Shown here: one piece after another, positions 2,110 through 39,308 of the stretch
How positions within the stretch are numbered: the first letter of the stretch is position 1
Layout of the letters: each line of letters begins with the position of its first letter
Virus record (IMG/VR): IMGVR_UViG_2541047861_000010
Coordinates: 1-39,308 of that record
Source of the DNA: a virus
Lineage: Duplodnaviria > Heunggongvirae > Uroviricota > Caudoviricetes
Reading direction: 5' to 3' (one strand)
Length of the DNA stretch: 39,308 nucleotides
Position numbers and translations under genes: made by a program
Notes under the pieces: generated by a model
The model's input: the letters and a program-made list of their open reading frames with translations, nothing else
What the model was told of the DNA's origin: nothing
The model's database searches: none

Positions 2110-2119
2110 AGATATCCTT

Positions 2120-2836
2120 TTAATTAGGTTCAAAAATTTTAAATTCATTCCACGGCAATTTTTTCCAGTTACTGGATGGATCTTTCAACCATGCAGTGAC
2201 TTCCTTTAAATCACGGTTCGCAGTGGCGACGGGGGTATCGTATATCATTAACCATTTTTGTCGGGCGCGAACATAAGCACTGGCATAATCTTCCCATGAA
2301 GCGAAACAATCTTGTGCTCTTTGAGCATTCAGTAATAACACTATCCAGGCCTGGTTTTCATCGCACCAGCCTAAACCGGCGATGCAACGAGTTAAAAAAG
2401 CAGTGCGCATACAGTCAAACGCCAGCCCATCCAGAACCTGGCCTTGTGCTGCCAGTTGTTCGTAAAAATCATGTGGAGAATTACCAAGCCCTGTAGCCCA
2501 GCGCTGTAATATAACGCCAATTTGTTGACGGAAATCTTCGTTGCTTTGGTAAGTTTCTGTTCCTAGCTCTTGTTTAACCTGTAGTGCAAGTTGTTGACGC
2601 TTATCATCAGTCAACTTTAAATCTAACGTGAAGCCATTTACTGACAGTCCATTACGACGAGCAACTATATCACCAATTGCTAATGCCCACTTACGTCTCT
2701 TTGTTGCTCGTCTTTTGTCCTTGATTAGATCCTTTTCTTTTTCTTTAGCAATAAAAGCATCGATTTGTGGTTTGTTTTTTTTGTATCTATAGATAAAAAT
2801 AAATATTGCGACCAGGAGAACAATGATAAGACTCAT
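2120..2836 (-). CDS. Hypothetical membrane-anchored protein, 238 aa, single N-terminal hydrophobic helix
   Basis: ORF with ATG start; N-terminus SLIIVLLVAIFIFIYRY followed by KKNK looks like a signal anchor. Start overlaps stop of upstream gene (TAATG). Possibly DUF1266-like, unverified. Confidence 0.6.
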   Translation of the reverse strand: MSLIIVLLVAIFIFIYRYKKNKPQIDAFIAKEKEKDLIKDKRRATKRRKWALAIGDIVARRNGLSVNGFTLDLKLTDDKRQQLALQVKQELGTETYQSNEDFRQQIGVILQRWATGLGNSPHDFYEQLAAQGQVLDGLAFDCMRTAFLTRCIAGLGWCDENQAWIVLLLNAQRAQDCFASWEDYASAYVRARQKWLMIYDTPVATANRDLKEVTAWLKDPSSNWKKLPWNEFKIFEPN

Positions 2837-4050
2837 TATTTTTCAACCTCTGACAGGGGTAAGTAATGAGATGTCTGTAATGTCAAACTCTCTATCTCAA
2901 AGGAAATGTTGCTGATATTTTGACCTGCAAATTGCGGATGCCACTCAGCGCCAGGGAATAACATTTCCGCAGAAGTAGCAACTATAGGGTCAATAGCATT
3001 AAGATAATGTAACTTATCAGGTGCGCTGTGTAACAGTAACCACTGCAACTCCACTGAAGGATTTGTAAAATGTTCTAATAAATGAAAGTTATTATGTAGT
3101 ACGCTTAGTAAAAAACTGGTTTCGTATACTTCCGTTACATATTTCCACCCCTGATATTCAGGTGTATTTTCATAAACAATACCCATACCTTCACAATCAC
3201 TATGTCGAACTGCTTGTGGTGATAATAGTTGCAAAAGAGACAAAACATCGTCCGCATATTTTTTAACTGGATGACGATTTTGCTTACCTTTTATTTGATC
3301 AATTTCAAGTGAATCACCAACAACATTGAGAGCAATAGTAACATGAGGAATATTATTATTATCACGCAAACTGAATAACCGTAATTTATGTTGCTCAATT
3401 TGATTTGCATAATACTCACCATAACCACCGGTAAGATTTTTTCGATCATCAAACTGGCCTACGCAATGTTGCATATGCCATGATTCATAAGCCATTTCAC
3501 GACGAAGGTTCGAATGACTGGCATCAAACTCAACAATTTTTCCGTCTGGCACATCAAGTATTGACTTTACAGTATTTTGTTCACTCGGCTGCCACCCTTT
3601 CTCGCGTCGTTGAAGCATCTTTTCATGCTCTTCTTCACGCATTCTGAACGCAACGTAGCAGGTTATGCGCTGTAGTTTTGATTCCAGACGGGTACCACAT
3701 TTCCTGGAAAGAAATTCCACCAACTCCCGTTCTTTGGTTAATATTTGTTGATGATCGGTTTCGATATAATAAAGTGTCGCAGTTGATACTGAGGCAGTAT
3801 TAAACTTCGATACCAGCCATTCCGGGATTACATCATCATTTTTATTAAACAGTGAATATTCTGCAAGCGAGTTAATTTGTTGCACCATTGGAAAGTCACT
3901 AATTAGCCATCGATAAAAATGGTTGAGTAACCATTTTTGGATGGTCTCATTATCCTGGCGAAACAGACTTCTTTGCAAAATTGCTGTTTTTACTTCCGGG
4001 GCATTAATTACATCCCTTGCATTATAATTCTGGTGAATATTTCCAGTCAT
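2836..4050 (-). CDS. Hypothetical protein, 404 aa; first gene of AT-rich three-gene operon
   Basis: ORF with ATG start at 4048-4050. Hand-counted GC of a 60-nt sample in this island is about 32 percent, versus about 60 percent in a prophage structural-gene sample (23161-23220). No confident domain assignment. Confidence 0.6.
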   Translation of the reverse strand: MTGNIHQNYNARDVINAPEVKTAILQRSLFRQDNETIQKWLLNHFYRWLISDFPMVQQINSLAEYSLFNKNDDVIPEWLVSKFNTASVSTATLYYIETDHQQILTKERELVEFLSRKCGTRLESKLQRITCYVAFRMREEEHEKMLQRREKGWQPSEQNTVKSILDVPDGKIVEFDASHSNLRREMAYESWHMQHCVGQFDDRKNLTGGYGEYYANQIEQHKLRLFSLRDNNNIPHVTIALNVVGDSLEIDQIKGKQNRHPVKKYADDVLSLLQLLSPQAVRHSDCEGMGIVYENTPEYQGWKYVTEVYETSFLLSVLHNNFHLLEHFTNPSVELQWLLLHSAPDKLHYLNAIDPIVATSAEMLFPGAEWHPQFAGQNISNISFEIESLTLQTSHYLPLSEVEK

Positions 4051-4537
4051 AACATCCGCCCGTGTTTATTATATCACTCAAAGCAATAATTGTTGACTAT
4101 AGATTTTTTATCTAAATCAGCATGGTTGCAGGTACATACTCAAGTAAGCCACTCAAGAAAATAACGTAAACTCAATAGTGGCAGCGTCACAAACTTTGGA
4201 AATTATGTCTTATATTTGCAGTTTATTTTAGTGAATAATTGAGATAAATGACATTATTTTACATCCTCAATAATTCAGGCTGTAAGAGGACGGCAAATAC
4301 ATTCATAATTATCAGGGGATGAACATTCAGGAAAGTAGTCAGTATCGTCAACTTTTTCTTTTATCACTACATGAAGATTTCGTGTAGATACTCCCATCTC
4401 TGCCACTTCTCCCCTCACATTTACACTGGAGCTAAACCCGCCGATTGCGCTACAATGCCCGCCCTTAAAGTGGGGGCACTCCCCTAACCGCTTCATCAGG
4501 TGAAGCGGCTCTGACCTGTCATCAGAACGAGAGAATT

Positions 4538-5899
4538 ATGTTTAAACCGGAACTCCTTTCCCCGGCGGGAACGCTGAAAAATATGCGTTACGCTTTCGCT
4601 TATGGCGCAGATGCTGTTTATGCGGGCCAGCCGCGTTACTCCCTGCGTGTACGCAACAACGAATTCAACCACGAAAATCTTCAGCTCGGCATCAATGAAG
4701 CCCACGCGCTGGGGAAAAAGTTTTATGTCGTGGTCAACATTGCACCGCACAACGCCAAGCTGAAAACCTTTATCCGTGACCTGAAACCGGTGGTGGAAAT
4801 GGGGCCGGATGCGCTGATTATGTCCGATCCAGGGCTGATTATGCTGGTGCGTGAACACTTCCCGGAAATGCCAATCCACCTCTCGGTACAGGCTAACGCC
4901 GTAAACTGGGCGACGGTGAAATTCTGGCAGCAAATGGGTCTGACCCGCGTGATCCTCTCTCGCGAACTGTCACTGGAAGAGATTGAAGAGATCCGCAATC
5001 AGGTGCCGGATATGGAGATCGAAATCTTCGTTCACGGCGCGCTGTGCATGGCCTACTCCGGTCGCTGCCTGCTCTCTGGCTATATCAACAAGCGCGACCC
5101 GAACCAGGGCACCTGCACCAACGCCTGCCGCTGGGAGTACAATGTCCAGGAAGGGAAAGAAGATGACGTCGGCAACATCGTACACAAGTACGAGCCGATT
5201 CCGGTGCAAAATGTTGAGCCGACGCTGGGTATCGGCGCGCCAACCGACAAAGTGTTTATGATCGAAGAAGCCCAGCGTCCGGGCGAGTATATGACCGCGT
5301 TTGAAGATGAGCACGGCACTTACATCATGAACTCGAAAGATCTGCGCGCCATCGCCCATGTTGAACGCCTGACCAAAATGGGCGTGCATTCGCTGAAAAT
5401 CGAAGGCCGTACCAAATCTTTCTACTATTGCGCACGCACCGCGCAGGTTTACCGTAAAGCTATCGATGACGCCGCTGCGGGCAAACCGTTCGATACCAGC
5501 CTGCTGGAAACGCTGGAAGGTCTGGCGCATCGTGGCTATACCGAAGGTTTCCTGCGTCGTCATACCCACGACGATTATCAGAACTACGAATACGGTTATT
5601 CGGTTTCTGACCGCCAGCAGTTTGTTGGTGAGTTTACCGGTGAGCGCAAGGGGGAGCTCGCGGCGGTAGCGGTGAAAAATAAATTCTCCGTTGGCGACAG
5701 CCTTGAGCTGATGACGCCGCAAGGCAACATTAACTTTACCCTTGAGCATATGGAAAACGCCAAAGGTGAAGCGATGCCGGTCGCACCAGGCGATGGTTAT
5801 ACTGTGTGGCTCCCGGTGCCGCAGGATCTTGAGCTAAATTACGCGCTGCTGATGCGTAATTTCTCCGGGGAAACCACGCGTAACCCCCACGGTAAGTGA
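4538..5899 (+). CDS. yegQ: Peptidase U32-family protein YegQ (tRNA hydroxylation protein TrhP)
   Basis: 453-aa translation beginning MFKPELLSPAGTLKNMRYAFAYGADAVYAGQPRYSLRVRNNEF matches my recollection of E. coli YegQ in length and sequence; followed by cyaR as in E. coli K-12. Confidence 0.9.
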   Translation: MFKPELLSPAGTLKNMRYAFAYGADAVYAGQPRYSLRVRNNEFNHENLQLGINEAHALGKKFYVVVNIAPHNAKLKTFIRDLKPVVEMGPDALIMSDPGLIMLVREHFPEMPIHLSVQANAVNWATVKFWQQMGLTRVILSRELSLEEIEEIRNQVPDMEIEIFVHGALCMAYSGRCLLSGYINKRDPNQGTCTNACRWEYNVQEGKEDDVGNIVHKYEPIPVQNVEPTLGIGAPTDKVFMIEEAQRPGEYMTAFEDEHGTYIMNSKDLRAIAHVERLTKMGVHSLKIEGRTKSFYYCARTAQVYRKAIDDAAAGKPFDTSLLETLEGLAHRGYTEGFLRRHTHDDYQNYEYGYSVSDRQQFVGEFTGERKGELAAVAVKNKFSVGDSLELMTPQGNINFTLEHMENAKGEAMPVAPGDGYTVWLPVPQDLELNYALLMRNFSGETTRNPHGK

Positions 5900-5934
5900 T
5901 TAATTTCGATTATTTTTCCCGGATGGAAAATTCT

Positions 5935-5983
5935 TAGAAACCGATCACATACAGCTGCATTTATTAAGGTTATCATCCGTTTC
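5935..5983 (+). promoter_or_regulatory. Putative cyaR promoter region (candidate -10 TATCAT at 5971-5976; possible CRP half-site GATCACA upstream)
   Basis: Position immediately upstream of the cyaR 5' end; cyaR is known to be CRP-dependent. Motif match is by eye and weak. Confidence 0.35.
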
Positions 5984-6070
5984 GCTGAAAAACATAACCC
6001 ATAAAATGCTAGCTGTACCAGGAACCACCTCCTTAGCCTGTGTAATCTCCCTTACACGGGCTTATTTTTT
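5984..6070 (+). ncRNA. cyaR: Small regulatory RNA CyaR (RyeE), Hfq-dependent, with intrinsic terminator
   Basis: Sequence GCTGAAAAACATAACCCATAAAATGCTAGCTGTACCAGGAACCACCTCCTTAGCCTGTGTAATCTCCCTTACACGGGCTTATTTTTT matches recalled E. coli cyaR; ends in a hairpin (CCCTTACACGGG) plus U-tract. Confidence 0.85.
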
Positions 6071-7635: not shown

Positions 7636-8114
7636 TATCCCGCCTCCGTCATACCCGTGAATTTAGTCGCTATACTGCCAGCCTTACCGATGAGCGATTC
7701 CGCCTGTTTACCGATATCGCCATAAAGCGCGGCCAGTGATTCATCAACGCGGGTGAGCGACAGCGTAAAATCAATTTTCCGGGGTGTGCCGTCTGCAAAG
7801 AAAATACTCCCTGTTTCACTCACCTTACTGATGACATACATGCCATAAATCATGCCGGTGCCATCCAGCAACGGCCACGCCCGGCCTTCCTCTGCCATCA
7901 GCCTGAGCGTGGTCATCGTCAGCTTTCCGCCGGTCAGTTCGGGATAAAGCACACCGGCAAGCGTGATGTTTTCCTCACCCACACCGAGAAATTGAAAGGC
8001 ATCCCGTTTGCCGATACGGGAATTTGACGGCCAGCGATAATCTGATTCACGCTGCATGGTCTGGTGTGGCAGCGTCTGGCGCATAAAAACAAACATACCT
8101 AACGCGAGCATCAT
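7635..8114 (-). CDS. U: P2 gpU-like tail protein (159 aa)
   Basis: Length and synteny (between T and D) match P2 U. Confidence 0.9.
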   Translation of the reverse strand: MMLALGMFVFMRQTLPHQTMQRESDYRWPSNSRIGKRDAFQFLGVGEENITLAGVLYPELTGGKLTMTTLRLMAEEGRAWPLLDGTGMIYGMYVISKVSETGSIFFADGTPRKIDFTLSLTRVDESLAALYGDIGKQAESLIGKAGSIATKFTGMTEAG

Positions 8115-8128
8115 TTTTCGTCACCTCC

Positions 8129-10576
8129 TTAACCGTCATGCATCATGCTGGCACGGGCGCGCGCACGTTTATCCCGCTCGTATTTTTCGAGCGCATCCTG
8201 TAACTGGCGGTCAAGCTGTGTCCCCGGCGCAGTACCACCCGTCAGGCTGATGTGATATTCGTTTTTACTCTGGTCTACATAAGAGCGGCCAGCCGGTGCC
8301 GTGACCGGCTGATAAGCCTGATAGCCTGCATAAGAGCTGGTCGCCGGAATATAACCACCGCTGCCATACGTGGCGGCTTGAGTTCTGGCGGCGGTCTGGT
8401 CAAGTGTGTCTGACTCTTTGTTGATAACACCGAGTTTTTCCAGTACCCAGTCAATGCCGCTGCGCAGTTTGTTGAACGCATTAAGCGGCAGCATCAGCGC
8501 GTCAGCCAGTGCCTGCCCGAACATGACCCCCGTGTCACGGCAACGGTTCAGGGTGTCCTGAGTGGCTTTGACCGGGGCAATCAGGTTTTTAAACCACTGC
8601 CACGCGGCCTGTAACTTTTCACCCAGCCAGTCAAACACCGGCTTAAGTGGCGTGAACAGTTCCCCCACCGGCGCAAATGCCACTTTCAGCCCTTCAACCA
8701 CACCGCCAAAGAATGCGCTGACAGGCTCCCAGTATTTACGGATAAGCAACGCCCCGGCGACAATGGCGGCCACCACGGCCACAACCGGCCAGCTAATAGC
8801 CCCGATGGCGGTCATAACAGCACTGCCAACCGTCGTGAAGACTGCCCCCATTGCGCCTGCTGCCGCGATGATGGCATTGATGCCGGTGATAACCGGCCAG
8901 GCTACAAGACCAATTGCACCGATGATGCCAGTCAGCGCCAGCGCGCCACCGACAATGAGGCCGATGGTTGACGCCAGTGATTTGTTTTTCTGGATCCAGC
9001 CGTCGAGTTTTAACACATACTTTGTGGCCGTCTGCGTGAGCTTACGCAGCGCGCCTTCCTGCTGGTCAAACAGGTCAGTCCCCACCGCCTCATAAGCGGA
9101 CTGAAACTCTTTAAAGTCACCGCCTAGGTTGTCCTGCATGATATTTACCAGCTCGGCGGTCTTCCCGTCTGAGGCTTTAAACGCAGCGGTCAGTTTGTCC
9201 AGCTTTCCGGTTGAGGCGGCAGTCATCAGCACGGCGGCGGCTGAGCTGGCCTCCTCCCCGAAAATAGTTTTCATGTATTCAGCCTGCTGGGCAGTACCGA
9301 GCCGGTTTTTCTCAAAACTGGCCTGCATTTCTTTCAGAATGGTAAATACTGGCCGGGTGTTTCCCTTGCTGTCTGAGGTTTTCACACCAAGCTCTTTGAG
9401 TGCATCCCATGCTTTTCCCGTCGGTGCCTGCAGGCGGCTTAACACGGCACGGCTTCCCGTCCCCGCTATTGAACCGGTAATTTTTGCATCATGCAGCGCC
9501 CCGACCATTGCGGCGGTTTCTTCAATGCTGACACCGGCATTTTTTGCCACAGGTGCGGCATAGGTCAGCGCATCGCTCATGCCGTCAAAATCGGCGGCGG
9601 TTTTGTTCATCGTCATGGAGAGAACATCCCCGATATGAGCGACCTTATCGTTTGAAAGCTGAAAGGCGGATTTCATCCCCATCAGCAGGGCGGCGTTTTC
9701 TTCCATCGTGCGACGGTTCGCCAGCGCCATATTCAGCGTGACCGGCGTTGCCGCCTGAATGGCATCAACATCCCCACCCGCTTTCGCGATGATTATCTGT
9801 GCACCGGCCGCATCATCCGCCGAGGCGGCGGTATTGTCGCCGAGCTGGCGCGCCTGTTTGCGTAGTGCGGTCATTTCGGCGGAGTCTTTTGCCACTCCGA
9901 GCACGGCCTGCAATTCTGAGTTTTTCTGCGCAAACTCATAACCGGGCATCAGCAACTTAACTCCGGCCATCGTTCCCGCCGCCGCAATCCCCACACCGGC
10001 AGCGCCCACCGAGGCCATATTTCCGGCCAGTTCCTTTCCGGCCTGATAACGCTGTTTTACTGCATTAAGTTTTGCCTGTTGCGCACTGACACGCGCCAGC
10101 GCGTCACGCTGCCGGTTAAGCTGTGCGGTGGTTTCACTGATACGGTTTTTCAGTCCCTGCTCATCATGTGCAAGATTGCGGGTATTAATTCCCACAGCGG
10201 CCAGTTCCCGCTGCTGGCGCTTAACGGAATCCGTCAGGCGGTTATATTTCGCCTGTAAGTCCTCCGCCGCACGCTTTGCGGATTCCAGCACTTTCGCCTG
10301 AGCACGGGTCGGACGTTCAGTGTTTTTAAACTGTGTGGCAAGGGCTTCGGCTTCCTGCCGTGCCTTTTCAAGTGCATGACCAGTCACGGCAAGCTGTGCG
10401 CTGGTCTTGCGAAATCCCTCAATACGGGATGCGTGACCGTTCAGCTCGCGCAGTGATTTTTGTGTTTCCCGGATATCCCCCGACAGCGACTTACTCGCTG
10501 TGCGGATGGATTTAAACGGGCGGGATGCCTGGTCAACAGCCCTGAGCAATACCTGTAATTTTACATTGTTACTCAT
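8129..10576 (-). CDS. T: Tail tape measure protein gpT (815 aa)
   Basis: 815 aa, Ala/Gln-rich coiled-coil N-half and hydrophobic Gly/Ala-rich segment; start ATGAGTAAC overlaps the E' stop as in P2. Confidence 0.9.
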   Translation of the reverse strand: MSNNVKLQVLLRAVDQASRPFKSIRTASKSLSGDIRETQKSLRELNGHASRIEGFRKTSAQLAVTGHALEKARQEAEALATQFKNTERPTRAQAKVLESAKRAAEDLQAKYNRLTDSVKRQQRELAAVGINTRNLAHDEQGLKNRISETTAQLNRQRDALARVSAQQAKLNAVKQRYQAGKELAGNMASVGAAGVGIAAAGTMAGVKLLMPGYEFAQKNSELQAVLGVAKDSAEMTALRKQARQLGDNTAASADDAAGAQIIIAKAGGDVDAIQAATPVTLNMALANRRTMEENAALLMGMKSAFQLSNDKVAHIGDVLSMTMNKTAADFDGMSDALTYAAPVAKNAGVSIEETAAMVGALHDAKITGSIAGTGSRAVLSRLQAPTGKAWDALKELGVKTSDSKGNTRPVFTILKEMQASFEKNRLGTAQQAEYMKTIFGEEASSAAAVLMTAASTGKLDKLTAAFKASDGKTAELVNIMQDNLGGDFKEFQSAYEAVGTDLFDQQEGALRKLTQTATKYVLKLDGWIQKNKSLASTIGLIVGGALALTGIIGAIGLVAWPVITGINAIIAAAGAMGAVFTTVGSAVMTAIGAISWPVVAVVAAIVAGALLIRKYWEPVSAFFGGVVEGLKVAFAPVGELFTPLKPVFDWLGEKLQAAWQWFKNLIAPVKATQDTLNRCRDTGVMFGQALADALMLPLNAFNKLRSGIDWVLEKLGVINKESDTLDQTAARTQAATYGSGGYIPATSSYAGYQAYQPVTAPAGRSYVDQSKNEYHISLTGGTAPGTQLDRQLQDALEKYERDKRARARASMMHDG

Positions 10577-13433: not shown

Positions 13434-16214
13434 TTACACCTGTGCGACGTTATACCATGTGCCATTGATGTATTTTTGTATCGGTCTGAAGATGGCTTCA
13501 TCATCGCCATCAACTTCACCAATAATTCTTAATCCGGTAAGTGTGTGTCCGGCCATCTCATAACGCCCGCCACGCGCCATCAATTGAACAACACGTGTTC
13601 CCAGGCGAACATCCATCACATAACGCCCGTCGAAATTACCGTAGTTACTTGGCACAACTTGTCCGGCAACAGTTAATCCATGGCCAATAGTGACTCCACC
13701 AGTGGAATTCTGAATATAGAATGGCCTTAAACTACTCCATCCCCCCATACTGTCACCGGAGTTGGTCAACATGAAATGGGTGAAATTACCATCATTTCGG
13801 ATAAAGAATCCATAGTTCCCACATACGATGCGATAACCGTTTGCTGACCTTGAAACAACTTCCCCATCAACAGTTAAACCGCCTGTAATAGTGCCACCGG
13901 ATATCGGTAAAGCACCAACATCACCAGCGGATGGTTTATGTGCTGTCGTATAAAGCTGTGCCCATCCAGACCACTGAGCGTCATCTGTATCCCGCCTTGA
14001 ACGAATATATGCTGGTGCATGAGCACCGCTGGTTCCACTCCAGCCGATAAGTAACTCACCTTCTCCGGTTGCGGATACCCCCGTAAGATGAAGCACATTG
14101 CCATAGGCATAAGGGTAGCCATTGTTATATGCCTCATACATCTGAATACCAGGCACCCCCTTCTCACTCCCGCTTAATGCAGCAACGCGATTCCTGGATA
14201 CCAGCGTATTAATATTGATATTGCCAGAACCATCAAATTTCACGCCGTTAATTGTCCTTGCCGTTTTCAGCTTTGTAGCTGTAGCCGCATTGCCGGACAG
14301 TTCGCCTGAAAGACCGGCGCTGAAGGTTTGTTTCGCCGCCCATGTCTGAGCTTCGTCGATAATTGGCACACGTCTTGTCGTGATCGTGCGGCTTCCCGGA
14401 TTTCCTGAAATACGCACCATAAAAAAGCGGTAGTTGGCTTTACTTACAGTGCTGCGCCATACATGCATTGAGCGCCCCGTACCGGAATCATCACTCGGAC
14501 CAACTGCGATGTTTATCAGGTTGCCATCAATGACGCCCCAGTCCATACCGTCGGGAATGTGGGTCATGTTATCAAGCCGAACGGTTATCAGACTGCCCGG
14601 CACAAAGTCGTAGGTCTGCCAGTCCAGGCTGGAGAGTTTTGCCACAGCGCCACCGATGCCCAGATTCAGAGGCAACGAAAAGGAGTTATATACTTCTCGC
14701 CATTCGGTCCATTTGCTCCCGGCGTAGACGCGCTCAAAAGTGCGTCCCTGTGTGGTTTCTGATTTCCCTGTGGTTGTGTAACGCTGCCAGACAGACACAC
14801 CATCAAAACGTCTGATTACTTCCAGTATCCCAAGTAGTGTCGCGCCAACGGTGTCCAGCATCGGACCGTTTGTTGCCTTTCCTGTAACACTGTAAATACC
14901 GGGGTCGGTTAGAACATTTAAATCACCCTCGTAATAACGACTCTCTGACTGATGACCGATTCTTAACCACGGTTCCCACTGCGGATTTGATGCATCCCAG
15001 CTTGCCGCAAGGCAGCGGACATACATATTTCCACGGCGAGTGGTATAACGTTGCGTTCTTCCATAATTCCCGCCTTCGAGGATCTCAAGCGTCCCCTGAG
15101 CAAAGCCGCCTTCCTCTGGATAATTGCGTTCATATGAAGCTATAGCCGAGCTACTGTTACGCCATAAACCAAGATGCTCGGCGGCTCCAAGCGTATTCAG
15201 GTCTATAGTCGTACTCAAAGGGCGGGTAGCAGATTGAGTGTGACGCCATACGCCCCACGGACCATCAGTGCCATTCCACTTATTGGCGAGTTTACGCATG
15301 TATACATTGCCGTCTCTCGTGGTAAAGCGTTGAGTACCTGCAAAATTGCCGGCAGCAAAAACCTCAAGCACACCGACAGCATTATCTTCCGGGAAATTTT
15401 TCTCCAGTGTTGCGTTAGTTGAGGTAGCTTTAGACCAGATCCCCAGATAAGCCTTAACGGGACCAAATGTATTCAGGTCGGCATCAACCGGCATTTCGCC
15501 ATTGTTTTTCATAAACGTCAGGCTGGTAACGCCAACATTGTCCAGAAAAGCTGATTTATCCTGGATATCTGCACCGTTCTGATTTTTCGCCAGACGTGAA
15601 TTTGCGTTGTCATTTGCTGCCTTGACCGCTTTTGGCGTTGCCGCCAATGACTCACTGGTGCTGTTTGTTGCACTGCTTAACTGAGTAAAACCTTTTTCTG
15701 TCAGCGTGGCGTCAGGATGGCGGCGGGACTGCTCATGCTCTGCGATTTTGTCATCGACATAATCCTGAGTCGCCATCACCGTGCTGGCATCAATACTCAG
15801 TTCAACGGACGCCACGTTGCTGAGAATAATAACCATGCGACAGGTCTGCGCACGCCCGGAGCCTTCAGCCAGTTCTGGCTTATAGCTTTCTGCCATGTTG
15901 GATACCGCAATCAGTGTTCCGGCATCGTCATACAGACCAAGCTCACGCATCCAGAAGCCGCCCACTTCGGGCGGTACAACCAGTTCAGCCACGATATAGT
16001 TTTTATTCTTATTATCCACGCTGACTTTATTCAGAGCGTGACGCCAGACCTCATGCACCAGTTTCGTCTGACCGGCATCCGGCACCGGCAATTTGCCATT
16101 ACCATCACCCACGGCCATTGCAGACAGGTTTACTTTTTTCCCGCCGGGGACAGTGGCGGCTGCCAGCTTTGCGGCTCCGGCAGTAGTGATAACGGTTTTA
16201 AATTTCGTGCTCAT
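13434..16214 (-). CDS. H: Tail fibre protein gpH (926 aa) with P2-like N-terminus and divergent longer C-terminal receptor-binding region
   Basis: N-terminus [25 protein letters not shown]... resembles P2 H (about 669 aa as I recall); C-terminus ends ...[17 protein letters not shown], a tail-fibre tip motif. Confidence 0.85.
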
Positions 16215-18729: not shown

Positions 18730-19473
18730 ATGGATAAATATCAAATCTGGGAAAAACAAAAAGACACCATCGCCCATAAAGAATATTTAAAAATTTCCGA
18801 CACCAATTTACTTGGACATATACACATTGCCAATTATGAGGTGATTCAAAGTGAATTAAGCAAATTCAACTCTCCTGAAATTGTACTCCACTACTCACTT
18901 AATAGAAATGAATTAAAAAAAGAGAGCATAAATATATCAAGACATTTTCTCAACTATATCTCCTCAGCATTATCACTTAGAGATTCAACTCGAAATCTAC
19001 ATAAAATTAATGTGTTAAATATTGATAACATTACCAATAAATCCAGAGAAATCATCAATGAAGAATTTTTAAAAAATCCAATCATCAAATTAATGGAGGA
19101 TTTAAGAAACATCCTAACCCATCAAAAAATGATCTCCCCATTAATATCATCATTTATGCACCTCCAGAAAAAAATAAACATACACGGATTTGCATTTAAG
19201 ATTGAAACCATACTGGAGAATGACCGACTTTCTGGTAAATCAAAAGAATACCTGAAGTCAACAGAACAAAAAAATTTATTCATCTTGCCGATAATAGAGG
19301 AATACCAATACACAACTCTTAAATACCAGCACTGGCTTTTAGCTTGTATCCACAATGCTCATCAAAATACATACCCAGAATACTGGGAAGCAAGAAAAAA
19401 CATAATGGACGTCTGGGGTGGAGATATCCAACTAATACCTGAAGAGAGTGCCCTCACTTATTTGACCAGATAA
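18730..19473 (+). CDS. Hypothetical protein (247 aa), AT-rich moron at the P2 orf30 position between V and S
   Basis: ATG at 18730 with AAGGAG 10 nt upstream; hand-counted GC of a 60-nt sample is about 22 percent; opposite strand to all flanking tail genes. No recognisable domain. Confidence 0.7.
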   Translation: MDKYQIWEKQKDTIAHKEYLKISDTNLLGHIHIANYEVIQSELSKFNSPEIVLHYSLNRNELKKESINISRHFLNYISSALSLRDSTRNLHKINVLNIDNITNKSREIINEEFLKNPIIKLMEDLRNILTHQKMISPLISSFMHLQKKINIHGFAFKIETILENDRLSGKSKEYLKSTEQKNLFILPIIEEYQYTTLKYQHWLLACIHNAHQNTYPEYWEARKNIMDVWGGDIQLIPEESALTYLTR

Positions 19474-19686: not shown

Positions 19687-20139
19687 CTAACGGTCGAGGT
19701 GAGCCAGAATAATCTCTTCAATCATCTGCACATCCTCACCGGTAAAGCCGAGCAGGGGACGCGCCGGATAATCAATTTTCTTACCGTCTTTCCGGGTTTC
19801 TTCCGACAGACCGAACTGATGCACACTGGCGATTTTCGGTGACTTCCCGCCGTAAAACTCCATTGATGCCTGCTCCGGGCTGGCGCGGATATGCAAAAAA
19901 CGACTGGTGATAAGTTTCGCAAACATTTTTCGCTTAACACGACCGGTCTTTTTTCTGGCGCTCTGCTGCTGGCGTGGCGCGTAGGGTGTGCCGTCCGGGG
20001 CTTTCTGTGCCATCACCCGACGCTGCTGACTCTGCCGCAGACGTTTCGCCAGTTCGGCACTCAGTCGCCGACGCCCTGACGGTGACAGCGATTCAATCAG
20101 TCCGGTCAGCCGGTCTTCAAAACGCTTAAACTCATTCAT
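19687..20139 (-). CDS. S: Tail completion protein gpS (150 aa)
   Basis: Length and synteny match P2 S. Confidence 0.9.
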   Translation of the reverse strand: MNEFKRFEDRLTGLIESLSPSGRRRLSAELAKRLRQSQQRRVMAQKAPDGTPYAPRQQQSARKKTGRVKRKMFAKLITSRFLHIRASPEQASMEFYGGKSPKIASVHQFGLSEETRKDGKKIDYPARPLLGFTGEDVQMIEEIILAHLDR

Positions 20140-20599
20140 CCCACTTGCTCACCAGTTCGCCATTGATATACAGCTCCATCGGGCGGGTAACCGGCTCCGG
20201 CGGCGGGGGTTCCGGGATATTCTTCACATGCAGTGCGCCGTCCACCTCACTGACCAGTGCGCGCTCGGTCAGCATCAGGCTGATGCTGATATCAAAACTG
20301 CTGTCATTGTTGATGTCTGCATAAAACGTGAAGCCCTTTTTCTGGCCTGCGTCGGTGGTCATGATGTCGGGCTGATTTTCCCGCAGCCACGCCAGCACCG
20401 GCACGATGAGCAGGTCAAAATCACCGGTAAAGTCGGTCACAATGACATTGAGCGTGTAACGCTTTTCGAATGACAGCGACGTCGCCAGTGTGGAGGCAAT
20501 ACTCCCGTTATCCACGAATATCCGCAGCATATCGGGGTTAGTTTTCAGCACCGTGACGGCATCAGTCAGCGCCCTGCGCAGGCTGTCGGGTTTGAGCAT
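20132..20599 (-). CDS. R: Tail completion protein gpR (155 aa)
   Basis: Length and synteny match P2 R. Confidence 0.9.
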   Translation of the reverse strand: MLKPDSLRRALTDAVTVLKTNPDMLRIFVDNGSIASTLATSLSFEKRYTLNVIVTDFTGDFDLLIVPVLAWLRENQPDIMTTDAGQKKGFTFYADINNDSSFDISISLMLTERALVSEVDGALHVKNIPEPPPPEPVTRPMELYINGELVSKWDE

Positions 20600-20852
20600 C
20601 GTTTTCGTCCTGACAGTGTTTAATCATTTTTATCTGGCTGGCACACCGTGCCAGCGCGTTCTCAAGCTGCCGGATATCGGCACTTAAATCGCCGTTCGTC
20701 TGCGGGTCACTGCCCGGCATCGGGCAAAGACTCACTTTCGGGCAGGCGTTGGGGACAATCACTGGCGTCAGTGCAGGCGGGGCGCTGGTGCAACCGGCGC
20801 ACAGCATCAGGCAGGTCAGCACCGTACCAGCGGCGAAAATCTTCGTTTTCAT
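20562..20852 (-). CDS. lysC: LysC, o-spanin-like lipoprotein (Rz1 equivalent), nested out of frame in lysB
   Basis: Start at MKTKIFAAGTVLTCLMLCAGC gives a lipobox (LCAGC) signal peptide; embedded in the 3' part of lysB in another frame, as in P2. Confidence 0.75.
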   Translation of the reverse strand: MKTKIFAAGTVLTCLMLCAGCTSAPPALTPVIVPNACPKVSLCPMPGSDPQTNGDLSADIRQLENALARCASQIKMIKHCQDENDAQTRQPAQGAD

Positions 20853-21132
20853 TGAGTAACCTCGTGATGGTTTTCTCGCGCTGTGCTTCACGCTTCGCGG
20901 CGTTCTCCAGCTCCTGACGCAGTGCAACCTGCGCCAGCTCGTTTTTGTCTGCCCTGGTGAGCGCAACATGAAGCTGATTTTTCAGCATGGTGATGGTCGT
21001 CTGCTGCCCGCTGGCGACATTGTTTGCCCTGTCCAGCGAGGTGCGCAGGCTGGCGTTTTCATGCTTCACCAGAAACAGACCGGCCACCGCCAGTGATAAC
21101 AACACAACCAGCACAGTCATCAGCTTTGACAT
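20707..21132 (-). CDS. lysB: LysB, i-spanin-like lysis protein (141 aa)
   Basis: N-terminal TM helix then coiled-coil region; P2 LysB length and position. Confidence 0.85.
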   Translation of the reverse strand: MSKLMTVLVVLLSLAVAGLFLVKHENASLRTSLDRANNVASGQQTTITMLKNQLHVALTRADKNELAQVALRQELENAAKREAQREKTITRLLNENEDFRRWYGADLPDAVRRLHQRPACTDASDCPQRLPESESLPDAGQ

Positions 21133-21545
21133 GGTTCCCGCCCCTCAAAACGCTGACGGCAGGCCGTACGTATCAGCCGGAAGAACACCGACGCCACGAG
21201 GTAAATCAGCGCAGTAAAAATCCACCCGGCAGCGACCAGCGAGATAAACGTCGCCACCATCACTACCAGAGCCACCGCCCGTCTGCGCCACGGCACCGGC
21301 TGCAAAAACAGCGACGTGACAATCTTCACGGCCAGCGATTCCGGCGGCAGCCCCCGCCCGTGGCGTTCCAGTACATACTCTGTGGCATACACGCCGACAC
21401 CGCCGGCAACCACACAGATAACCGTCGCCAGAATCGCCCAGGCGGCGACAAAATTGACGGCCACGCTCTGCGGGTAAATCAGGGACAGTGCCAGCATCAG
21501 CGCCAGCGACACGTTCAGCATCAGTGAAAGGGATAATTTCTTCAT
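21120..21545 (-). CDS. lysA: LysA lysis-timing membrane protein (141 aa)
   Basis: Multi-pass hydrophobic protein of P2 LysA length between K and lysB. Confidence 0.85.
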   Translation of the reverse strand: MKKLSLSLMLNVSLALMLALSLIYPQSVAVNFVAAWAILATVICVVAGGVGVYATEYVLERHGRGLPPESLAVKIVTSLFLQPVPWRRRAVALVVMVATFISLVAAGWIFTALIYLVASVFFRLIRTACRQRFEGREPCQS

Positions 21546-21559
21546 GGTGTTTACTCCGT

Positions 21560-22057
21560 TTAAGCCGGTACGCCGCCAGCGGTACGCCAGACGGTGACCA
21601 GTTTTTCCAGTGAATGCTCACGCTGACCGTAACCGGCTCCCGGCAGGGACGCCCAGATATTGCGACAGCGTGAAATGGCGCGCTCAATGCGTCCCGCCCG
21701 GATGTCATCCAGTGCACCGCGTTCGCGGATCAACTGAATGGCGAGTCTGTCCTGTGACAACGGACTGAAATCCGGCAGGGCAAGCTGTTTGCGGTAATGC
21801 GGCCAGAACAGGTAAAGCTGCTGATAGCGACCGGAGGCCGTGGATTTTTCACCGCGACGGTTAAACACCTTCGCCGGTCGGCCATGCGCGAACGGGTGGT
21901 CACTGTAGTCGGTGAAAATTTCCGGCTTTCCGTCCACTCCGGTGACTATCACGTCATAGCCCCGGTTTTTCGTCAGCGGATGGTTCGCCGTCCCTTCGGA
22001 CACGGCCAGCATGTCGAGAAAGGCCGCGATATTCTGATGCGTGTTAATTACCGGCAT
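21560..22057 (-). CDS. K: Endolysin gpK (165 aa)
   Basis: 165 aa beginning MPVINTHQNIAAFLDMLAVSEGT, a lambda R-like transglycosylase signature; P2 K position. Confidence 0.9.
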   Translation of the reverse strand: MPVINTHQNIAAFLDMLAVSEGTANHPLTKNRGYDVIVTGVDGKPEIFTDYSDHPFAHGRPAKVFNRRGEKSTASGRYQQLYLFWPHYRKQLALPDFSPLSQDRLAIQLIRERGALDDIRAGRIERAISRCRNIWASLPGAGYGQREHSLEKLVTVWRTAGGVPA

Positions 22058-22338
22058 TACGGTTTCCCCCTGCCCTTAAAACGGCGCTGAATGGCAATCT
22101 CAATCACCTGATAACCGGCGATACCCAGCATGGAGCCGATGCCGCACACCGCAGGCAGTGACAGGTCAGGAAACTGCACCAGAACAACACCGGCAACCAT
22201 CGAGACAAAACCACCGAGCAACATGCGCCCGATAAACAGACGCGGGGTGATGGGTTCACCACCGGCAAGCACCTTGCCGACAACAATCAGCACCCCAATC
22301 ATGAAAAGCGACAGGACGCTTTTTTCTTCTGCTGTCAT
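22057..22338 (-). CDS. Y: Holin gpY (93 aa)
   Basis: Small protein with multiple TM segments and charged C-terminus; P2 Y length and position. Confidence 0.9.
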   Translation of the reverse strand: MTAEEKSVLSLFMIGVLIVVGKVLAGGEPITPRLFIGRMLLGGFVSMVAGVVLVQFPDLSLPAVCGIGSMLGIAGYQVIEIAIQRRFKGRGKP

Positions 22339-22341
22339 GCG

Positions 22342-22545
22342 TTACTCCCACAGATTGACAGTTTCAGCCACGGGCGCGGTCTGAACGTCGGGCAGTTCGA
22401 CGGCGGTGCCGTGCGGCAGCACCGCACCCAGTTCAGCCAGTCCCGGATTTGCGGCGAGCACAGTCTCGACCACGCCCTCAGTGCGCCCGTAATACCGGAC
22501 ACAAATGGCGTCGAGCGTGTCGCCCTGTAGCGCAAAGGTCTTCAT
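22342..22545 (-). CDS. X: Tail protein gpX (67 aa)
   Basis: Start at MKTFALQGDTLDAICVRYYGRTEG; start overlaps the L stop (TGATG). Confidence 0.85.
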   Translation of the reverse strand: MKTFALQGDTLDAICVRYYGRTEGVVETVLAANPGLAELGAVLPHGTAVELPDVQTAPVAETVNLWE

Positions 22546-29182: not shown

Positions 29183-30250
29183 TCATTTCTTAGCTTTCAC
29201 AACCGGATGCGCGCGATCATGTCCACCGCCACGATGCTTAGAAAATATAACCTTTTCATTAGTAAAAGGTTTTTGGCCATAGACACTATCATAGTGGAAA
29301 AAGACGTTCGGAAGATGAGGCACACGGATGAATCCATACTTCACTCTAGTATCACCGATGACCCCAAAAACCCTTGTACTTACTGGGTAGCATAGTTCAC
29401 CACAACGCATCACTAATTCATCTGCTGTTGGGCGTTCAGAAGGTTCCAATTTTAAACAATCTTCTATAAGTTTAATTATTTCATTTGCCAATGGCGCATA
29501 CTGTCTATTTGAAAATATAAAGTCAGGGTAAGGAACATGCGTGCCAGAAAGTATTTTTGGTATAGCCATATAACCAATACCAAAAGGGTATTTTCCAGTA
29601 AGAATCCTGAACATCATCGCACCCAATGCCCAAATATCTGTAGGTTTCGAAACCTTACCTTGACTCTGTATGATTTCCGGTGCCATATATGGCAAAGCCC
29701 CGATAGCCGTTTGCGAAGAACTAATTGAATCTTGACCATTTCTTGCAGCCTCATCAATTTCATCTCCGGCCATCTTTGAAATGCCGAAATCCGTAATTTT
29801 TATCTCTGTAGCATTGATACCACCGCCTACCATTATATTTGAAGGTTTGAGGTCCCGGTGTATGACGTCAACATGATGCGAAGCAGACAGAGCTTTAGCT
29901 AAATTATGAAATATTTTAGCAGTTAAATATGGATCAACACTTGAATAAGTGTCTAAAATAGCCTTATCCAAGTCAACTCCATCAATAAATTCCTCCGTTA
30001 AAAACTCTCTACCCTCATCATCAATGAAGTAATCTAAGGTTTTAGCCACATTAGGATGATTAACCCTTGATGCTAATATTGCACTTCTATGAAACCTTTT
30101 TTCAGCAGATTTATTTTTGGGAGTTTTGAGAGCCACATGCCTCGAGAGAATATTATCCATTGCCAAATAAACTTTTTGCATACCGCCTTCACCAATCTCC
30201 CTCAATATTGTATATCTGCTAACTTGAATTCCTGGAGTCAGATTTATCAT
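29183..30250 (-). CDS. Hanks-type Ser/Thr protein kinase with C-terminal cold-shock-like (OB-fold) domain (355 aa)
   Basis: Kinase motifs present: G-loop GEGGMQKV, VALK lysine, HRDLKPSN, DFG, APE. C-terminal 60 aa (VFGVIGDTRVKYGFIRVPHLPNVFFHYDSVYG...EKVIF) aligns by eye to the CspA pattern. AT-rich; start overlaps upstream stop (ATGA). Confidence 0.85.
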   Translation of the reverse strand: MINLTPGIQVSRYTILREIGEGGMQKVYLAMDNILSRHVALKTPKNKSAEKRFHRSAILASRVNHPNVAKTLDYFIDDEGREFLTEEFIDGVDLDKAILDTYSSVDPYLTAKIFHNLAKALSASHHVDVIHRDLKPSNIMVGGGINATEIKITDFGISKMAGDEIDEAARNGQDSISSSQTAIGALPYMAPEIIQSQGKVSKPTDIWALGAMMFRILTGKYPFGIGYMAIPKILSGTHVPYPDFIFSNRQYAPLANEIIKLIEDCLKLEPSERPTADELVMRCGELCYPVSTRVFGVIGDTRVKYGFIRVPHLPNVFFHYDSVYGQKPFTNEKVIFSKHRGGGHDRAHPVVKAKK

Positions 30251-31311
30251 AACACCACCTCCGGATGGGAAAGGTCAAATGTAATGAAGACCCGCTCTTT
30301 TCTTGGCCGAGAAGTCTCTCCCAGAATAATAACACATGAATCAGGCAAAATATTATATTGCTTTGCAGCTATATTATTCACATACACCTCACCACTTAAA
30401 CTCGATATATAAAACTCTGAACCAGAATATTTCACCTCAATAGTCCCGACCCCTGAATTATTAAAAGCCGCAGATTTATTTGTTGAAGAAATGATGACGG
30501 GTGGAGTGTTATCAGAGATTAACAATGCTCTATGAGAGTTGTAGAGAACGAATTTTTTTAGAGTCTGACACACATCAGCCATATCAGGTCTCTCACAAGG
30601 ATTCGTATCTAAACATTGGAAAAGCAATTCTTTTACCTGAGTTGGTAACTGTATATTAGAATTATCAAAAGGATTAGACAATAATTTTTTGGGTAAAACT
30701 CTCATTTCCGGTGGTAGTGGGGTCTTAGCCAAAAACATGGCCGTTACAGCAAAAGCATATGTATCTATGGATTTTGTAAACGCTACTTGATGTAAAAATA
30801 ATTCAGGTGCAGCATATGTTGGGGTTCCTTTAAAACCTATTGTATTAGCTTCATCAACATTTCTAGATAGTCCGAAGTCATAAATCTTCACTACTCCCTC
30901 AGAATCAATTTTCATGTTCCCAGGCTTGATATCCCTATGAATAATATCATGAGAATGTATCTCAGAAATACCCGAAGATATTTGCCACAAAATTTTAATC
31001 AGATCTTCAGAATTTAATATGCGATCCTCTACTTCCAATAATGAAGGTCCGTCAACATACTCTTCGACTATAGCAATTCCTTTACCTTGATAATTAATAA
31101 CATCATAAAGCTCTACTACATGTTTTGATCTTAATTTCATCAATGCTGATAACTCATCCATCATTCGAGGAGAATCATCAGGATTACTTATGGACTTTAT
31201 AGCGACAAATCTTTCGAGGTGAGTATCCAAGCATTTGATCACGCAACCAAATCCTCCCGAAGCCTCTTCTTCAGTCCTCTTATATCTTGCAGGGAGAGTA
31301 AAATTAGTCAT
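30247..31311 (-). CDS. Hanks-type Ser/Thr protein kinase with C-terminal FHA-like domain (354 aa)
   Basis: Kinase motifs present: GGFGCV, VAIK, HRDIKPGN, DFG, APE. C-terminal segment (SSLSGEVYVNNIAAKQYNILPDSCVIILGE) resembles the FHA signature. RBS AAGGAG 7 nt upstream. Confidence 0.85.
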   Translation of the reverse strand: MTNFTLPARYKRTEEEASGGFGCVIKCLDTHLERFVAIKSISNPDDSPRMMDELSALMKLRSKHVVELYDVINYQGKGIAIVEEYVDGPSLLEVEDRILNSEDLIKILWQISSGISEIHSHDIIHRDIKPGNMKIDSEGVVKIYDFGLSRNVDEANTIGFKGTPTYAAPELFLHQVAFTKSIDTYAFAVTAMFLAKTPLPPEMRVLPKKLLSNPFDNSNIQLPTQVKELLFQCLDTNPCERPDMADVCQTLKKFVLYNSHRALLISDNTPPVIISSTNKSAAFNNSGVGTIEVKYSGSEFYISSLSGEVYVNNIAAKQYNILPDSCVIILGETSRPRKERVFITFDLSHPEVVL

Positions 31312-32470
31312 CTTTATCTCCTTTAGTGGAGTTTTTCTCAGAGAATGAAATATCTAACTGTGAAATATTATCTAACTTATCATTATTGTTAGCTTCGATA
31401 ACATTCCTTCCCTCATCACTCTTTATATTACTATTTTTTTTCTTTGTACGTGATTTCCTTTTCGATACATTTTTTTTGTTAGAAATTTCATTACTGCATT
31501 CTAACTCAGTAACTTTTCTATCAATAACATTTTCAACCGTAGCTGAGTTAGGTATATCTAACGGCGCAGGTTGCACGCTAATTACTTTCATCTCACCAAA
31601 AGGATCCCATAAATTAATTACATCCCCAGATGATACATCCAAAGCACTTAGGATGTTCGAAATCTCAACTACCGCAATCGACGCATTATCAAATCCACCA
31701 AACCAACTAGCTAGATCTATAACTCTTTTAGCGAACACTCCAGTATTATTGGAGTGAGCATATAATTTTCTCAAATTATTACTGTCAATGGTATGAGCAC
31801 CATCTGAAGTTAATGCAACCACCCCAGGTACGAGCCGAATATCGTGAAAATGTATCTCAAGAACACCATCAAGACCTATAAACTGTACTAACTCGCCACC
31901 TAACCTAGAATCAATAACACCTGAGTCACTACCAAGATGCTCATTATATTTCTTTGCCAATACAGCTAATGTATCATCCTCACTAATTTGTTTTATGTGT
32001 TCAGCATTAATGGAATATATGCGACTATCCCCGACATTTATTGCTGTAATGTTATCGGAGTCATCTACAGCTAAGGCAGATAACGTAGCCCCACCGTTCC
32101 CATTATATACTTTCAAAACCGATTCATTTGCTTTTAAAACGGCGATTTCAAGACATTGTCTAATTGGCAAGCCTGAGTGTTTAATTATCTCGGTAAAAAA
32201 AGATGATACGGTCAATGAAGCAGCATTCGCTCCCCCTTCCATCCCCCCCATACCATCTGCTAAAGCGATGACAATCATGTCCTTATTCTTACTAAAAGGA
32301 CGAAATTTTAATACAGCTACCCGGTCTTGGTTCTCTTTCCTAACTAAACCTATGTCTGTAGCAATAGCTGCAGGTAGCATAGATACTCTTCGTACAGATG
32401 AAGAGATATTTTTTCTATGCAGCCAAGCGTGTATCTGTTCATGAAGGATCTCGTAAGAGTCTCGACTCAC
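31304..32470 (-). CDS. PP2C-family Ser/Thr protein phosphatase with Lys-rich disordered C-terminal tail (388 aa)
   Basis: PP2C motifs ALADGMGG, VGDSR and TSDG read in the translation. GTG start with GAGGAGG 4 nt upstream; 3' end overlaps the downstream kinase start by 8 nt (ATGACTAA). Confidence 0.8.
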   Translation of the reverse strand: MSRDSYEILHEQIHAWLHRKNISSSVRRVSMLPAAIATDIGLVRKENQDRVAVLKFRPFSKNKDMIVIALADGMGGMEGGANAASLTVSSFFTEIIKHSGLPIRQCLEIAVLKANESVLKVYNGNGGATLSALAVDDSDNITAINVGDSRIYSINAEHIKQISEDDTLAVLAKKYNEHLGSDSGVIDSRLGGELVQFIGLDGVLEIHFHDIRLVPGVVALTSDGAHTIDSNNLRKLYAHSNNTGVFAKRVIDLASWFGGFDNASIAVVEISNILSALDVSSGDVINLWDPFGEMKVISVQPAPLDIPNSATVENVIDRKVTELECSNEISNKKNVSKRKSRTKKKNSNIKSDEGRNVIEANNNDKLDNISQLDISFSEKNSTKGDKDD

Positions 32471-38556: not shown

Positions 38557-38635
38557 CGTTTAAGGGCTTTCAGTGGTAATTTATGCCGCTCAAACCCGCA
38601 TTGTACCGTTGAAAGCCCCTACTGGTGACACCCTA

Positions 38636-38663
38636 AATCTCCCTTACACGGGCTTATTTTTTA
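38636..38663. repeat. Prophage attachment-site core, int-proximal copy (28-bp direct repeat)
   Basis: AATCTCCCTTACACGGGCTTATTTTTTA identical to 6044-6071. Confidence 0.85.
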
Positions 38664-38990
38664 TGCATAAGCCCTATCCCTGGTCACCGTCTTCCATTGA
38701 CCACATCGATAGAATCCTCCTTCATAGCACGATGCTTTTCACTTATCGACATCGTGCTCGCACAGGTTCCGGTTACGCACAGCCAGAACGCGCATGTTTG
38801 ACGCTTACCAAAAAATGAACCTAAAGCATTGGAACATTTTTGACATCATTTTCTGATGGCTGCATAAAATAAAAATTCTGCTTTAGTTTCATCTATCTGT
38901 TTGTCATTATTACTCACATTCAATAATGGTGTTGAAGAATATCCCATCACAGATAAAATAAATATGTGCATGGTAGTCTTGAATCTATTC

Positions 38991-39308
38991 TCACTCTCCA
39001 CATTTGAATGTCAGACGAGCGACGCCATGTAATCCTGCACCTTCTGTCTTCAGGTCAACTATCTGCATTTTTTTGCCCTGAGTAACACAGAAATGAACTG
39101 CATCATTTTTTACTATATTTTCTGCACCAGATATTCTACCCCTGGCTAAAGAAGCTTCGGCTTCGGTGTAGTATTGGTTATCGAGTTTACGCTGAATATT
39201 ACTTTTATATGCAAGACCAAATTTACCGATACTTGTCTCATCATTATGTACAGCACACCCAGACATAAGAAAAACACTAATTAATGATATAGCAGCTATC
39301 TTTTTCAT
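38991..39308 (-). CDS. yegR: Lipoprotein YegR (105 aa)
   Basis: MKKIAAISLISVFLMSGCAVHNDETSIGKF... has a signal peptide with lipobox; matches recalled E. coli YegR in length and sequence. Start codon is at the window edge. Confidence 0.8.
   Translation of the reverse strand: MKKIAAISLISVFLMSGCAVHNDETSIGKFGLAYKSNIQRKLDNQYYTEAEASLARGRISGAENIVKNDAVHFCVTQGKKMQIVDLKTEGAGLHGVARLTFKCGE

Follow-up and report, generated by a model that had tools for sequence, protein, structure and literature searches.

The locus is the two-component spanin gene pair, lysB and lysC, of a P2-like prophage of E. coli, on the minus strand of the 39,308-nt stretch of DNA that was analysed as a whole (hereafter the window). 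Judging from sequence comparison, we put at about 95% the probability that lysB and lysC are orthologues of P2 lysB and lysC in a P2-like (Peduovirus) prophage and have the overlapped architecture, with an o-spanin gene that begins out of frame within the i-spanin gene and continues past the stop of the latter. Such a pair is very common, fully described and already known. It stands in the gene series X-Y-K-lysA-lysB-lysC-R-S, all on the minus strand at about 19.7–22.6 kb of the window, whose order is that of P2 gene for gene:

22342..22545, minus strand: X (Phage_tail_X)
22057..22338, minus strand: Y, holin, 93 aa (PF04550 Phage_holin_3_2, 2.6e-42, full length; length as P2 Y)
21560..22057, minus strand: K, endolysin, 165 aa (PHROG 17029 and PHROG 90 'endolysin'; length as P2 K)
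21120..21545, minus strand: lysA, accessory lysis gene for a multi-TMD membrane protein, 141 aa (PHROG 162, NF038378)
20707..21132, minus strand: lysB, i-spanin (Rz-like), 141 aa, ATG start (ORF and family matches)
20562..20852, minus strand: lysC, o-spanin (Rz1-like outer-membrane lipoprotein precursor), 96 aa, ATG start, +1 frame of lysB
20132..20599, minus strand: R, tail-completion gene (PF06891 P2_Phage_GpR, 5e-45)
19687..20139, minus strand: S, tail gene (Phage_tail_S)

The two spanin genes are adjacent and form the distal end of the lysis cassette, which runs Y, K, lysA, lysB, lysC and is followed by the tail genes R and S. Each of these cassette genes has exactly the P2 length and a full-length family match. 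Pfam gave no match for K or LysA and only a sub-threshold DUF5937 hit for LysB; the families of these proteins were resolved by NCBIfam and PHROGs after Pfam fell short. LysA has hydrophobic segments and matches PHROG 162 over its full length (1.4e-68) and NF038378 with 127 bits; its gene, equal in length to P2 lysA, overlaps the lysB start by 13 nt at its 3′ end. The RefSeq label of K is 'glycoside hydrolase family 24'. A preliminary description of this DNA had taken the spanin pair as a sign of an intact lysis cassette, and at the sequence level this is borne out, with Y, K, lysA, lysB and lysC all full length. The lysis cassette of the prophage is complete and apparently functional, as would suit a prophage that can be induced and can lyse its host.

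A 901-bp segment around lysB and lysC recurs with 100% identity in the complete chromosomes of E. coli FY26 and NCTC11151, finds matches in 1608 of 5426 complete E. coli genomes, and is 96–97% identical in DNA sequence to P2, pro483, Wphi, L-413C and others. The FY26 copy belongs to a complete P2-like prophage situated between yegR and ogrK/trhP, and RefSeq calls its 100%-identical genes lysB and lysC. The use of these names in the preliminary description is upheld by the P2 orthology and by the NCBI equivalog models that both proteins pass, and the spanin function it proposed is likewise supported by family models and P2 orthology.

Both ORFs were found on the minus strand with exactly the coordinates first given for them, and lysC does lie in a frame other than that of lysB, the +1 frame, and encodes a protein with a lipoprotein signal. 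The arrangement is not, however, the nested or embedded one that had been described. From its start at nt 281 of lysB, lysC covers the last 146 nt of that gene and a further 145 nt beyond the stop, ending 38 nt inside R. The stop of the lysC frame is at 20564–20562; there is none earlier, so none before the lysB stop at 20707. Placing lysC within the 3′ half of lysB was thus correct for 146 of its 291 nt, which occupy the last third of lysB, but not for the other 145 nt, which lie outside. Because half of lysC falls outside lysB, the pair is overlapped, not embedded. The features within the pair are as follows:

21067..21123, minus strand: single N-terminal transmembrane segment of LysB, codons 4–22, LMTVLVVLLSLAVAGLFLV (Kyte-Doolittle)
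20859..20863, minus strand: Shine-Dalgarno (SD) sequence GAGGT of lysC, inside lysB codons, 7 nt (from GAGG) upstream of the ATG
20790..20852, minus strand: predicted signal peptide of LysC, MKTKIFAAGTVLTCLMLCAG, then Cys21 (lipobox LCAG↓C) and Thr at +2, read directly
20707..20852, minus strand: dual-coding stretch, 146 nt, encoding LysB residues 94–141 and LysC residues 1–48 with part of codon 49
20562..20599, minus strand: 38 nt shared by the lysC 3′ end and the beginning of R, an overlap of the same length as in P2 and 186

This geometry agrees base for base with that of P2 (NC_001895: lysB 7922–8347, lysC 8202–8492, R 8455–8922). The 146/145-nt division of lysC is identical in P2, pro483, 186, PSP3, EtG, SEN1 and MHG38. 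Its overlap with R is 38 nt in P2, pro483, 186, EtG, SEN1 and MHG38 and 47 nt in PSP3; other lysC overlap lengths are found in Kp4852-2, YenM_06.16-2 and Burkholderia phage Milagro. The overlap of lysB and lysC saves 146 nt. A mutation in the distal half of lysC spares lysB, but one in the last 38 nt hits the tail gene R.

A lambda-type embedded spanin would have lysC wholly inside lysB. It shares with the observed layout a lysC start that falls inside lysB in another frame, but the lysC end, past the lysB stop and overlapping R, contradicts it, and the same layout recurs in P2 and nine other relatives. The literature also classes the pair as overlapped: the class was defined with P2 LysB/LysC as its type example (Table S1, 'ovl') and with lambda as an example of the embedded kind (Kongari et al. 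2018, PMC6139136), and the P2 layout was stated explicitly to be overlapped by Lynch et al. 2010 (PMC3091744). The RefSeq note on an identical gene reads 'substantially overlapping although not fully embedded'. We give the embedded arrangement practically no chance. The word 'embedded' in the preliminary description disagreed with the coordinates printed beside it.

The open +1 frame was rejected as evidence that lysC is a gene, because 96% of synonymous recodings of lysB, in which the LysB protein is held fixed, keep that frame stop-free over the overlap; the 145 nt downstream of the lysB stop stay open in 15% of shuffles. These figures speak for the idea that lysC is no gene, just an alternative-frame ORF that the composition of lysB and R happens to leave free of stops. 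So does its patchy annotation: lysC is unannotated in several genomes, e.g. L-413C, fiAA91-ss and vB_YenM_06.16-2 (among ten relatives, it is absent from one record and given only as a 159-nt fragment in four). Several lines of evidence nevertheless make this idea hardly conceivable. In a six-frame scan of the whole window, lysC was the only ORF with a lipoprotein-type signal. Its product matches the NCBIfam equivalog model NF038368 P2_Rz1 with 125.2 bits (cut-off 27), the profile spanning residues 4–88, and Pfam PF23793 LysC with 63 bits (cut-off 27; 2.5e-17), in both cases far above the cut-off, and it falls over its full length into a PHROG lysis family. A lipoprotein ORF is present at the same site in all ten P2/186-like relatives, and Cys21, Thr22, Cys37, Cys43, Cys70, Cys80 and the NGDLS motif of LysC are invariant in relatives down to 43% identity.

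Divergence by codon position points the same way. Mean pairwise divergence in a ten-sequence nucleotide alignment was 0.32, 0.26 and 0.45 at codon positions 1, 2 and 3 of the part that is lysB only, a third-position excess. Over the overlap, divergence falls to 0.184, as against 0.341 in the lysB-only part, and the wobble excess of the lysB frame is gone. Past the lysB stop, it peaks at the lysC wobble position (0.384, as against 0.165 and 0.124 at the others), so that the periodicity there tracks the lysC frame. For P2 itself, gor mutations reportedly map to lysC, and lysBC is said to complement lambda Rz/Rz1 nulls (Markov et al. 2004, as cited by Lynch et al. 2010). Detection of P2 LysC as a lipoprotein and a lysC-specific mutant phenotype have both been reported. 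The ribosome-binding site is conserved as well: the sequence up to the lysC start is CACGAGGTTACTCA-ATG, and GAGGTTACT recurs in P2-, 186- and Klebsiella-phage relatives (P2, 186, PSP3, EtG, SEN1, MHG38 and Kp4852-2). The same SD is marked for P2 in Table S1 of Kongari et al. 2018 (PMC6139136).

The 96-aa form of lysC, which the preliminary description had adopted, is the right one. It is also the form in the P2 reference record and, for P2 lysC, in the curated spanin table (Kongari et al. 2018, PMC6139136). A longer ORF of 135 aa, from the ATG at 20969, was rejected; it is without an SD, and in 186-like phages stop codons interrupt its extra upstream part. In those phages only 0–4 codons are open upstream of the conserved lysC ATG, so the 135-aa ORF cannot be the conserved product. 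Shorter forms have some currency in public records. Initiation at Met16 (20807) would give the 81 aa of RefSeq WP_171875677, and a start just upstream of the lysB stop would give the 52 aa (159 nt) annotated in pro483, EtG, SEN1 and MHG38; the Pfam LysC profile, moreover, begins at residue 16. Yet a Met16 start would leave 'MLCAGC' with no n-region or h-region, hence no signal peptide, and has no SD (upstream sequence GGTGCTGACCTGCCTG), while the 52-aa form loses the signal peptide together with the Cys that would carry the lipid. Alignment to the NCBIfam profile begins at residue 4, and the signal-peptide character of residues 1–21 is conserved, M1, A7, G9, L12, L15 and C21 being invariant. 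Taken together, this makes it very improbable that lysC is real but shorter than 96 aa.

Wrong or missing o-spanin starts are a common annotation error (Kongari et al. 2018, PMC6139136). Automatic annotation often mishandles lysC: public records begin it at any of three positions (giving 96, 81 or 52 aa) or leave it out, and only the 96-aa LysC has the needed signal peptide and lipid-attachment cysteine. Beyond correct annotation, the finding matters little.

LysB passes the equivalog model TIGR03495 phage_LysB with 172.2 bits (cut-off 92.75), residues 7–140 aligning with positions 2–135 of the 135-position profile. It matches PHROG 89 'Rz-like spanin' (4e-60) and is 96% identical to P2 LysB. 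The maximum of its 19-residue Kyte-Doolittle profile, 2.84, falls at residues 4–22 and no other hydrophobic segment was found; outside this segment 30% of residues are charged. The predicted topology, a single N-terminal TMD with the rest of the protein in the periplasm, is that of a spanin, and P2 LysB is listed with a 22-residue TMD in Table S1 of Kongari et al. 2018 (PMC6139136). A single-sequence AF2 model (pTM 0.35; block-mean pLDDT 79–94 over residues 1–100) has helices at 2–104 and 107–115 and a low-confidence tail, 116–141, that holds Cys120 and Cys126. According to this model, the periplasmic domain would be largely alpha-helical, as in an i-spanin. The most conserved block of LysB, residues 91–115 (RLLNENExFRxW..LPD.V.RLH), shares its DNA with the start, signal peptide and lipobox of LysC. 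Cys120 and Cys126 are absent as conserved residues in Yersinia enterocolitica phage vB_YenM_06.16-2 and in the Burkholderia relative Milagro, so that any disulfide role they have is not universal.

LysC is 97% identical to P2 LysC (NP_757382). Its N-terminus has a positively charged n-region, MKTK, a hydrophobic core and LCAG↓C21, and is predicted to be a signal-peptidase-II signal with Cys21 as the lipobox cysteine, as in an o-spanin. Signal-peptide and lipobox prediction had been suggested earlier as a check. Signal and Cys21 are recognized by reading the sequence, but a PROSITE-style lipobox pattern did not match LysC, whose −3 residue is Cys and not L, V or I. We do not count this miss against the lipoprotein, because P2 LysC fares the same in the spanin table of Kongari et al. 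2018 (PMC6139136; 'LipoP finds cleavage site at 20 and 17 ... No hit by Prosite') and non-canonical lipoboxes have been demonstrated to be functional in spanins. Residue +2 is Thr22, invariant in ten relatives, none of which has Asp there. With Thr at +2 LysC has no inner-membrane retention signal, and sorting to the outer membrane is predicted.

The mature LysC has 76 residues, of which 11.8% are proline, and its N-terminal half is proline-rich. Its four periplasmic cysteines (C37, C43, C70 and C80) are all invariant among the ten relatives, and together with C120 and C126 of LysB they would be available for putative intermolecular disulfides. AF2, again from the single sequence, gave a low-confidence model (mean pLDDT 51), in which the proline-rich half looks disordered and a helix at 56–88 comes after it; we take from it no more than a hint that there is a C-terminal helix. 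PDB sequence searches with LysB and LysC returned nothing useful and no solved structure of a relative for comparison.

The closest known system is P2 LysB/LysC (P2p11/P2p12; NP_046767, NP_757382), with the same 426- and 291-nt genes, +1 frame and 146-nt overlap, the same 38-nt R overlap, GAGGT ribosome-binding site and LCAG↓C lipobox, and the same neighbouring genes. The proteins differ from those of P2 by point substitutions only: R2K, P28L and V74I in LysC, and R3K, I6T, K25E, A31T, M130L and P135S in LysB. Orf27/Orf28 of 186 and gp11/gp12 of PSP3 (Eganvirus) have the same overlapped layout, with 146 nt within and 145 nt beyond, and conserve all five LysC cysteines. Identity to these is about 61–63% for LysB and 70–71% for LysC. 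Unlike the present genes, theirs include a LysB that is 4 residues shorter, and no lysA lies between the endolysin gene and lysB.

Lambda Rz/Rz1 is a two-component spanin of the same class, and both pairs come last in their lysis cassettes. Its i-spanin resembles LysB in combining an N-terminal TMD with a helical periplasmic domain. Its o-spanin, like LysC, is a small proline-containing outer-membrane lipoprotein, and the gene for it begins within that of the i-spanin in the +1 frame. Rz1 is, however, entirely embedded in Rz, whereas lysC overruns lysB, and there is no detectable sequence homology to Rz/Rz1 (the match to PHROG 214 is weak, 8e-4). Mature Rz1 has about 40 aa, and C29 is the sole Cys of Rz1; mature LysC, in contrast, has 76 aa, a predicted helix and four periplasmic Cys. 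T4 PseT.3/PseT.2 belongs to the two-component spanins as well; a helix is predicted at the C-terminus of its o-spanin, whose cysteines are essential. Its architecture, however, is separated, the genes lie at a distance from those for holin and endolysin, and there is no sequence similarity to LysB/LysC.

The lambda Rz/Rz1 model and the complementation by P2 lysBC suggest, by analogy, how lipoylation, localisation, complex formation and membrane fusion might proceed here. LysB would be anchored in the inner membrane by its N-terminal helix and extend a long, helical, charged periplasmic domain. LysC, which has its own GAGG site and ATG within lysB in the +1 frame, would receive its lipid at Cys21 and be sorted to the outer membrane, where it would sit in the inner leaflet. 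The periplasmic domains of the two proteins would bind each other, and the resulting complex would reach across the periplasm through the meshwork of the peptidoglycan, with disulfide bonds that depend on Dsb to stabilise it. Destruction of the cell wall by holin Y and endolysin K would come first; the LysB–LysC complexes would then fuse the two membranes and release the phage.

An older reading makes LysB and LysC regulators of lysis timing, not disruptors of the outer membrane. It survives in the P2 record and in many phage annotations, which carry 'lysis regulatory protein' and 'nonessential; affects timing of lysis'. An effect on timing only is nevertheless what spanin mutants show in shaken low-Mg2+ cultures: in lambda Rz/Rz1 mutants grown in this way the outer membrane breaks mechanically. 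The membrane topology signals of LysB and LysC are those of a spanin pair, and in current papers P2 LysB/LysC serves as a paradigm of the two-component spanins (PMC6139136, PMC3091744). To the regulator reading we assign only a very small probability, and the spanin function is preferred.

Together with the 38-nt lysC/R overlap, a hairpin inside lysC (8 bp, 20637–20655) could conceivably couple or throttle expression between the lysis genes and R and S, in which case lysC translation would set the amount of tail-completion protein. We think this very unlikely; the one observation that points to it is the retention of the hairpin within the P2 group. As a significant element the hairpin was set aside: it has no U-run, its stability relative to shuffles is not significant (z = −1.6), and it is not conserved outside the P2 group, being absent in 186 and PSP3. 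In P2 it is annotated as a 'putative transcription attenuator', and its loop reads GGU here and GCU in P2.

The same o-spanin gene, lysC, is annotated inconsistently among public records. It was left out of some, such as the vB_YenM_06.16-2 record (L008), where it is unannotated; the other forms are listed here for the E. coli FY26 region in RefSeq (L011) and for four phage records that as a group comprise pro483, EtG, SEN1 and MHG38.

Annotated forms of lysC in public records
L011:20494-20739, RefSeq/PGAP: start at Met16; 81 aa, without signal peptide
L001:2081-2239, phage record: start shortly before the lysB stop; 52 aa, without lipobox
L006:909-1067, phage record: start shortly before the lysB stop; 52 aa, without lipobox
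L007:986-1144, phage record: start shortly before the lysB stop; 52 aa, without lipobox
L010:909-1067, phage record: start shortly before the lysB stop; 52 aa, without lipobox

PHROG 952, with 62 positions, appears to have been derived from such truncated versions.

Inside lysC lies a perfect 8-bp hairpin (20637-20655, minus strand; GCUGGCAC-GGU-GUGCCAGC) of about -14 kcal/mol, with z = -1.6 relative to shuffled sequences. The P2 annotation marks this site as a 'putative transcription attenuator; O operon'. The hairpin lacks a U-run, and it is not conserved in the relatives 186, PSP3 and Kp4852-2.

Between portal gene Q and replication gene A, at the position occupied in P2 by old/tin, the window carries an AT-rich block of three genes (29183-32470, minus strand; GC 0.36-0.41).

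Genes of the AT-rich block
31304-32470, minus strand: PP2C-like phosphatase
30247-31311, minus strand: Ser/Thr protein kinase
29183-30250, minus strand: Ser/Thr protein kinase

In PADLOC, the two kinases matched the defence models PD-T4-6 and mad6, with values reaching 1e-54. At megablast level the block was not found in any of 50,697 phage records, which gave only flank matches of ~190 bp. The block is probably anti-phage defence cargo.

An AT-rich ORF, named hypothetical protein in RefSeq, sits between tail genes S and V on the strand opposite to them (18730-19473, plus strand), where P2 has the nonessential orf30. It encodes 247 aa, or 288 aa when the start is taken at an upstream GTG, and searches of Pfam and PADLOC returned no match.

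Host genes flank the prophage at window positions 1-6000 and about 38600-39308, as assigned from the annotated identical region of E. coli FY26. One flank holds trhP (yegQ) as well as a low-GC block, which codes for proteins with PcfJ, DUF1266 and DUF4034 domains; in the other, the integrase is followed by yegR/yegS. The tail-fibre gene is broken into pseudogenes in the FY26 assembly, whereas in the window it is an uninterrupted ORF of 926 aa (13434-16214).
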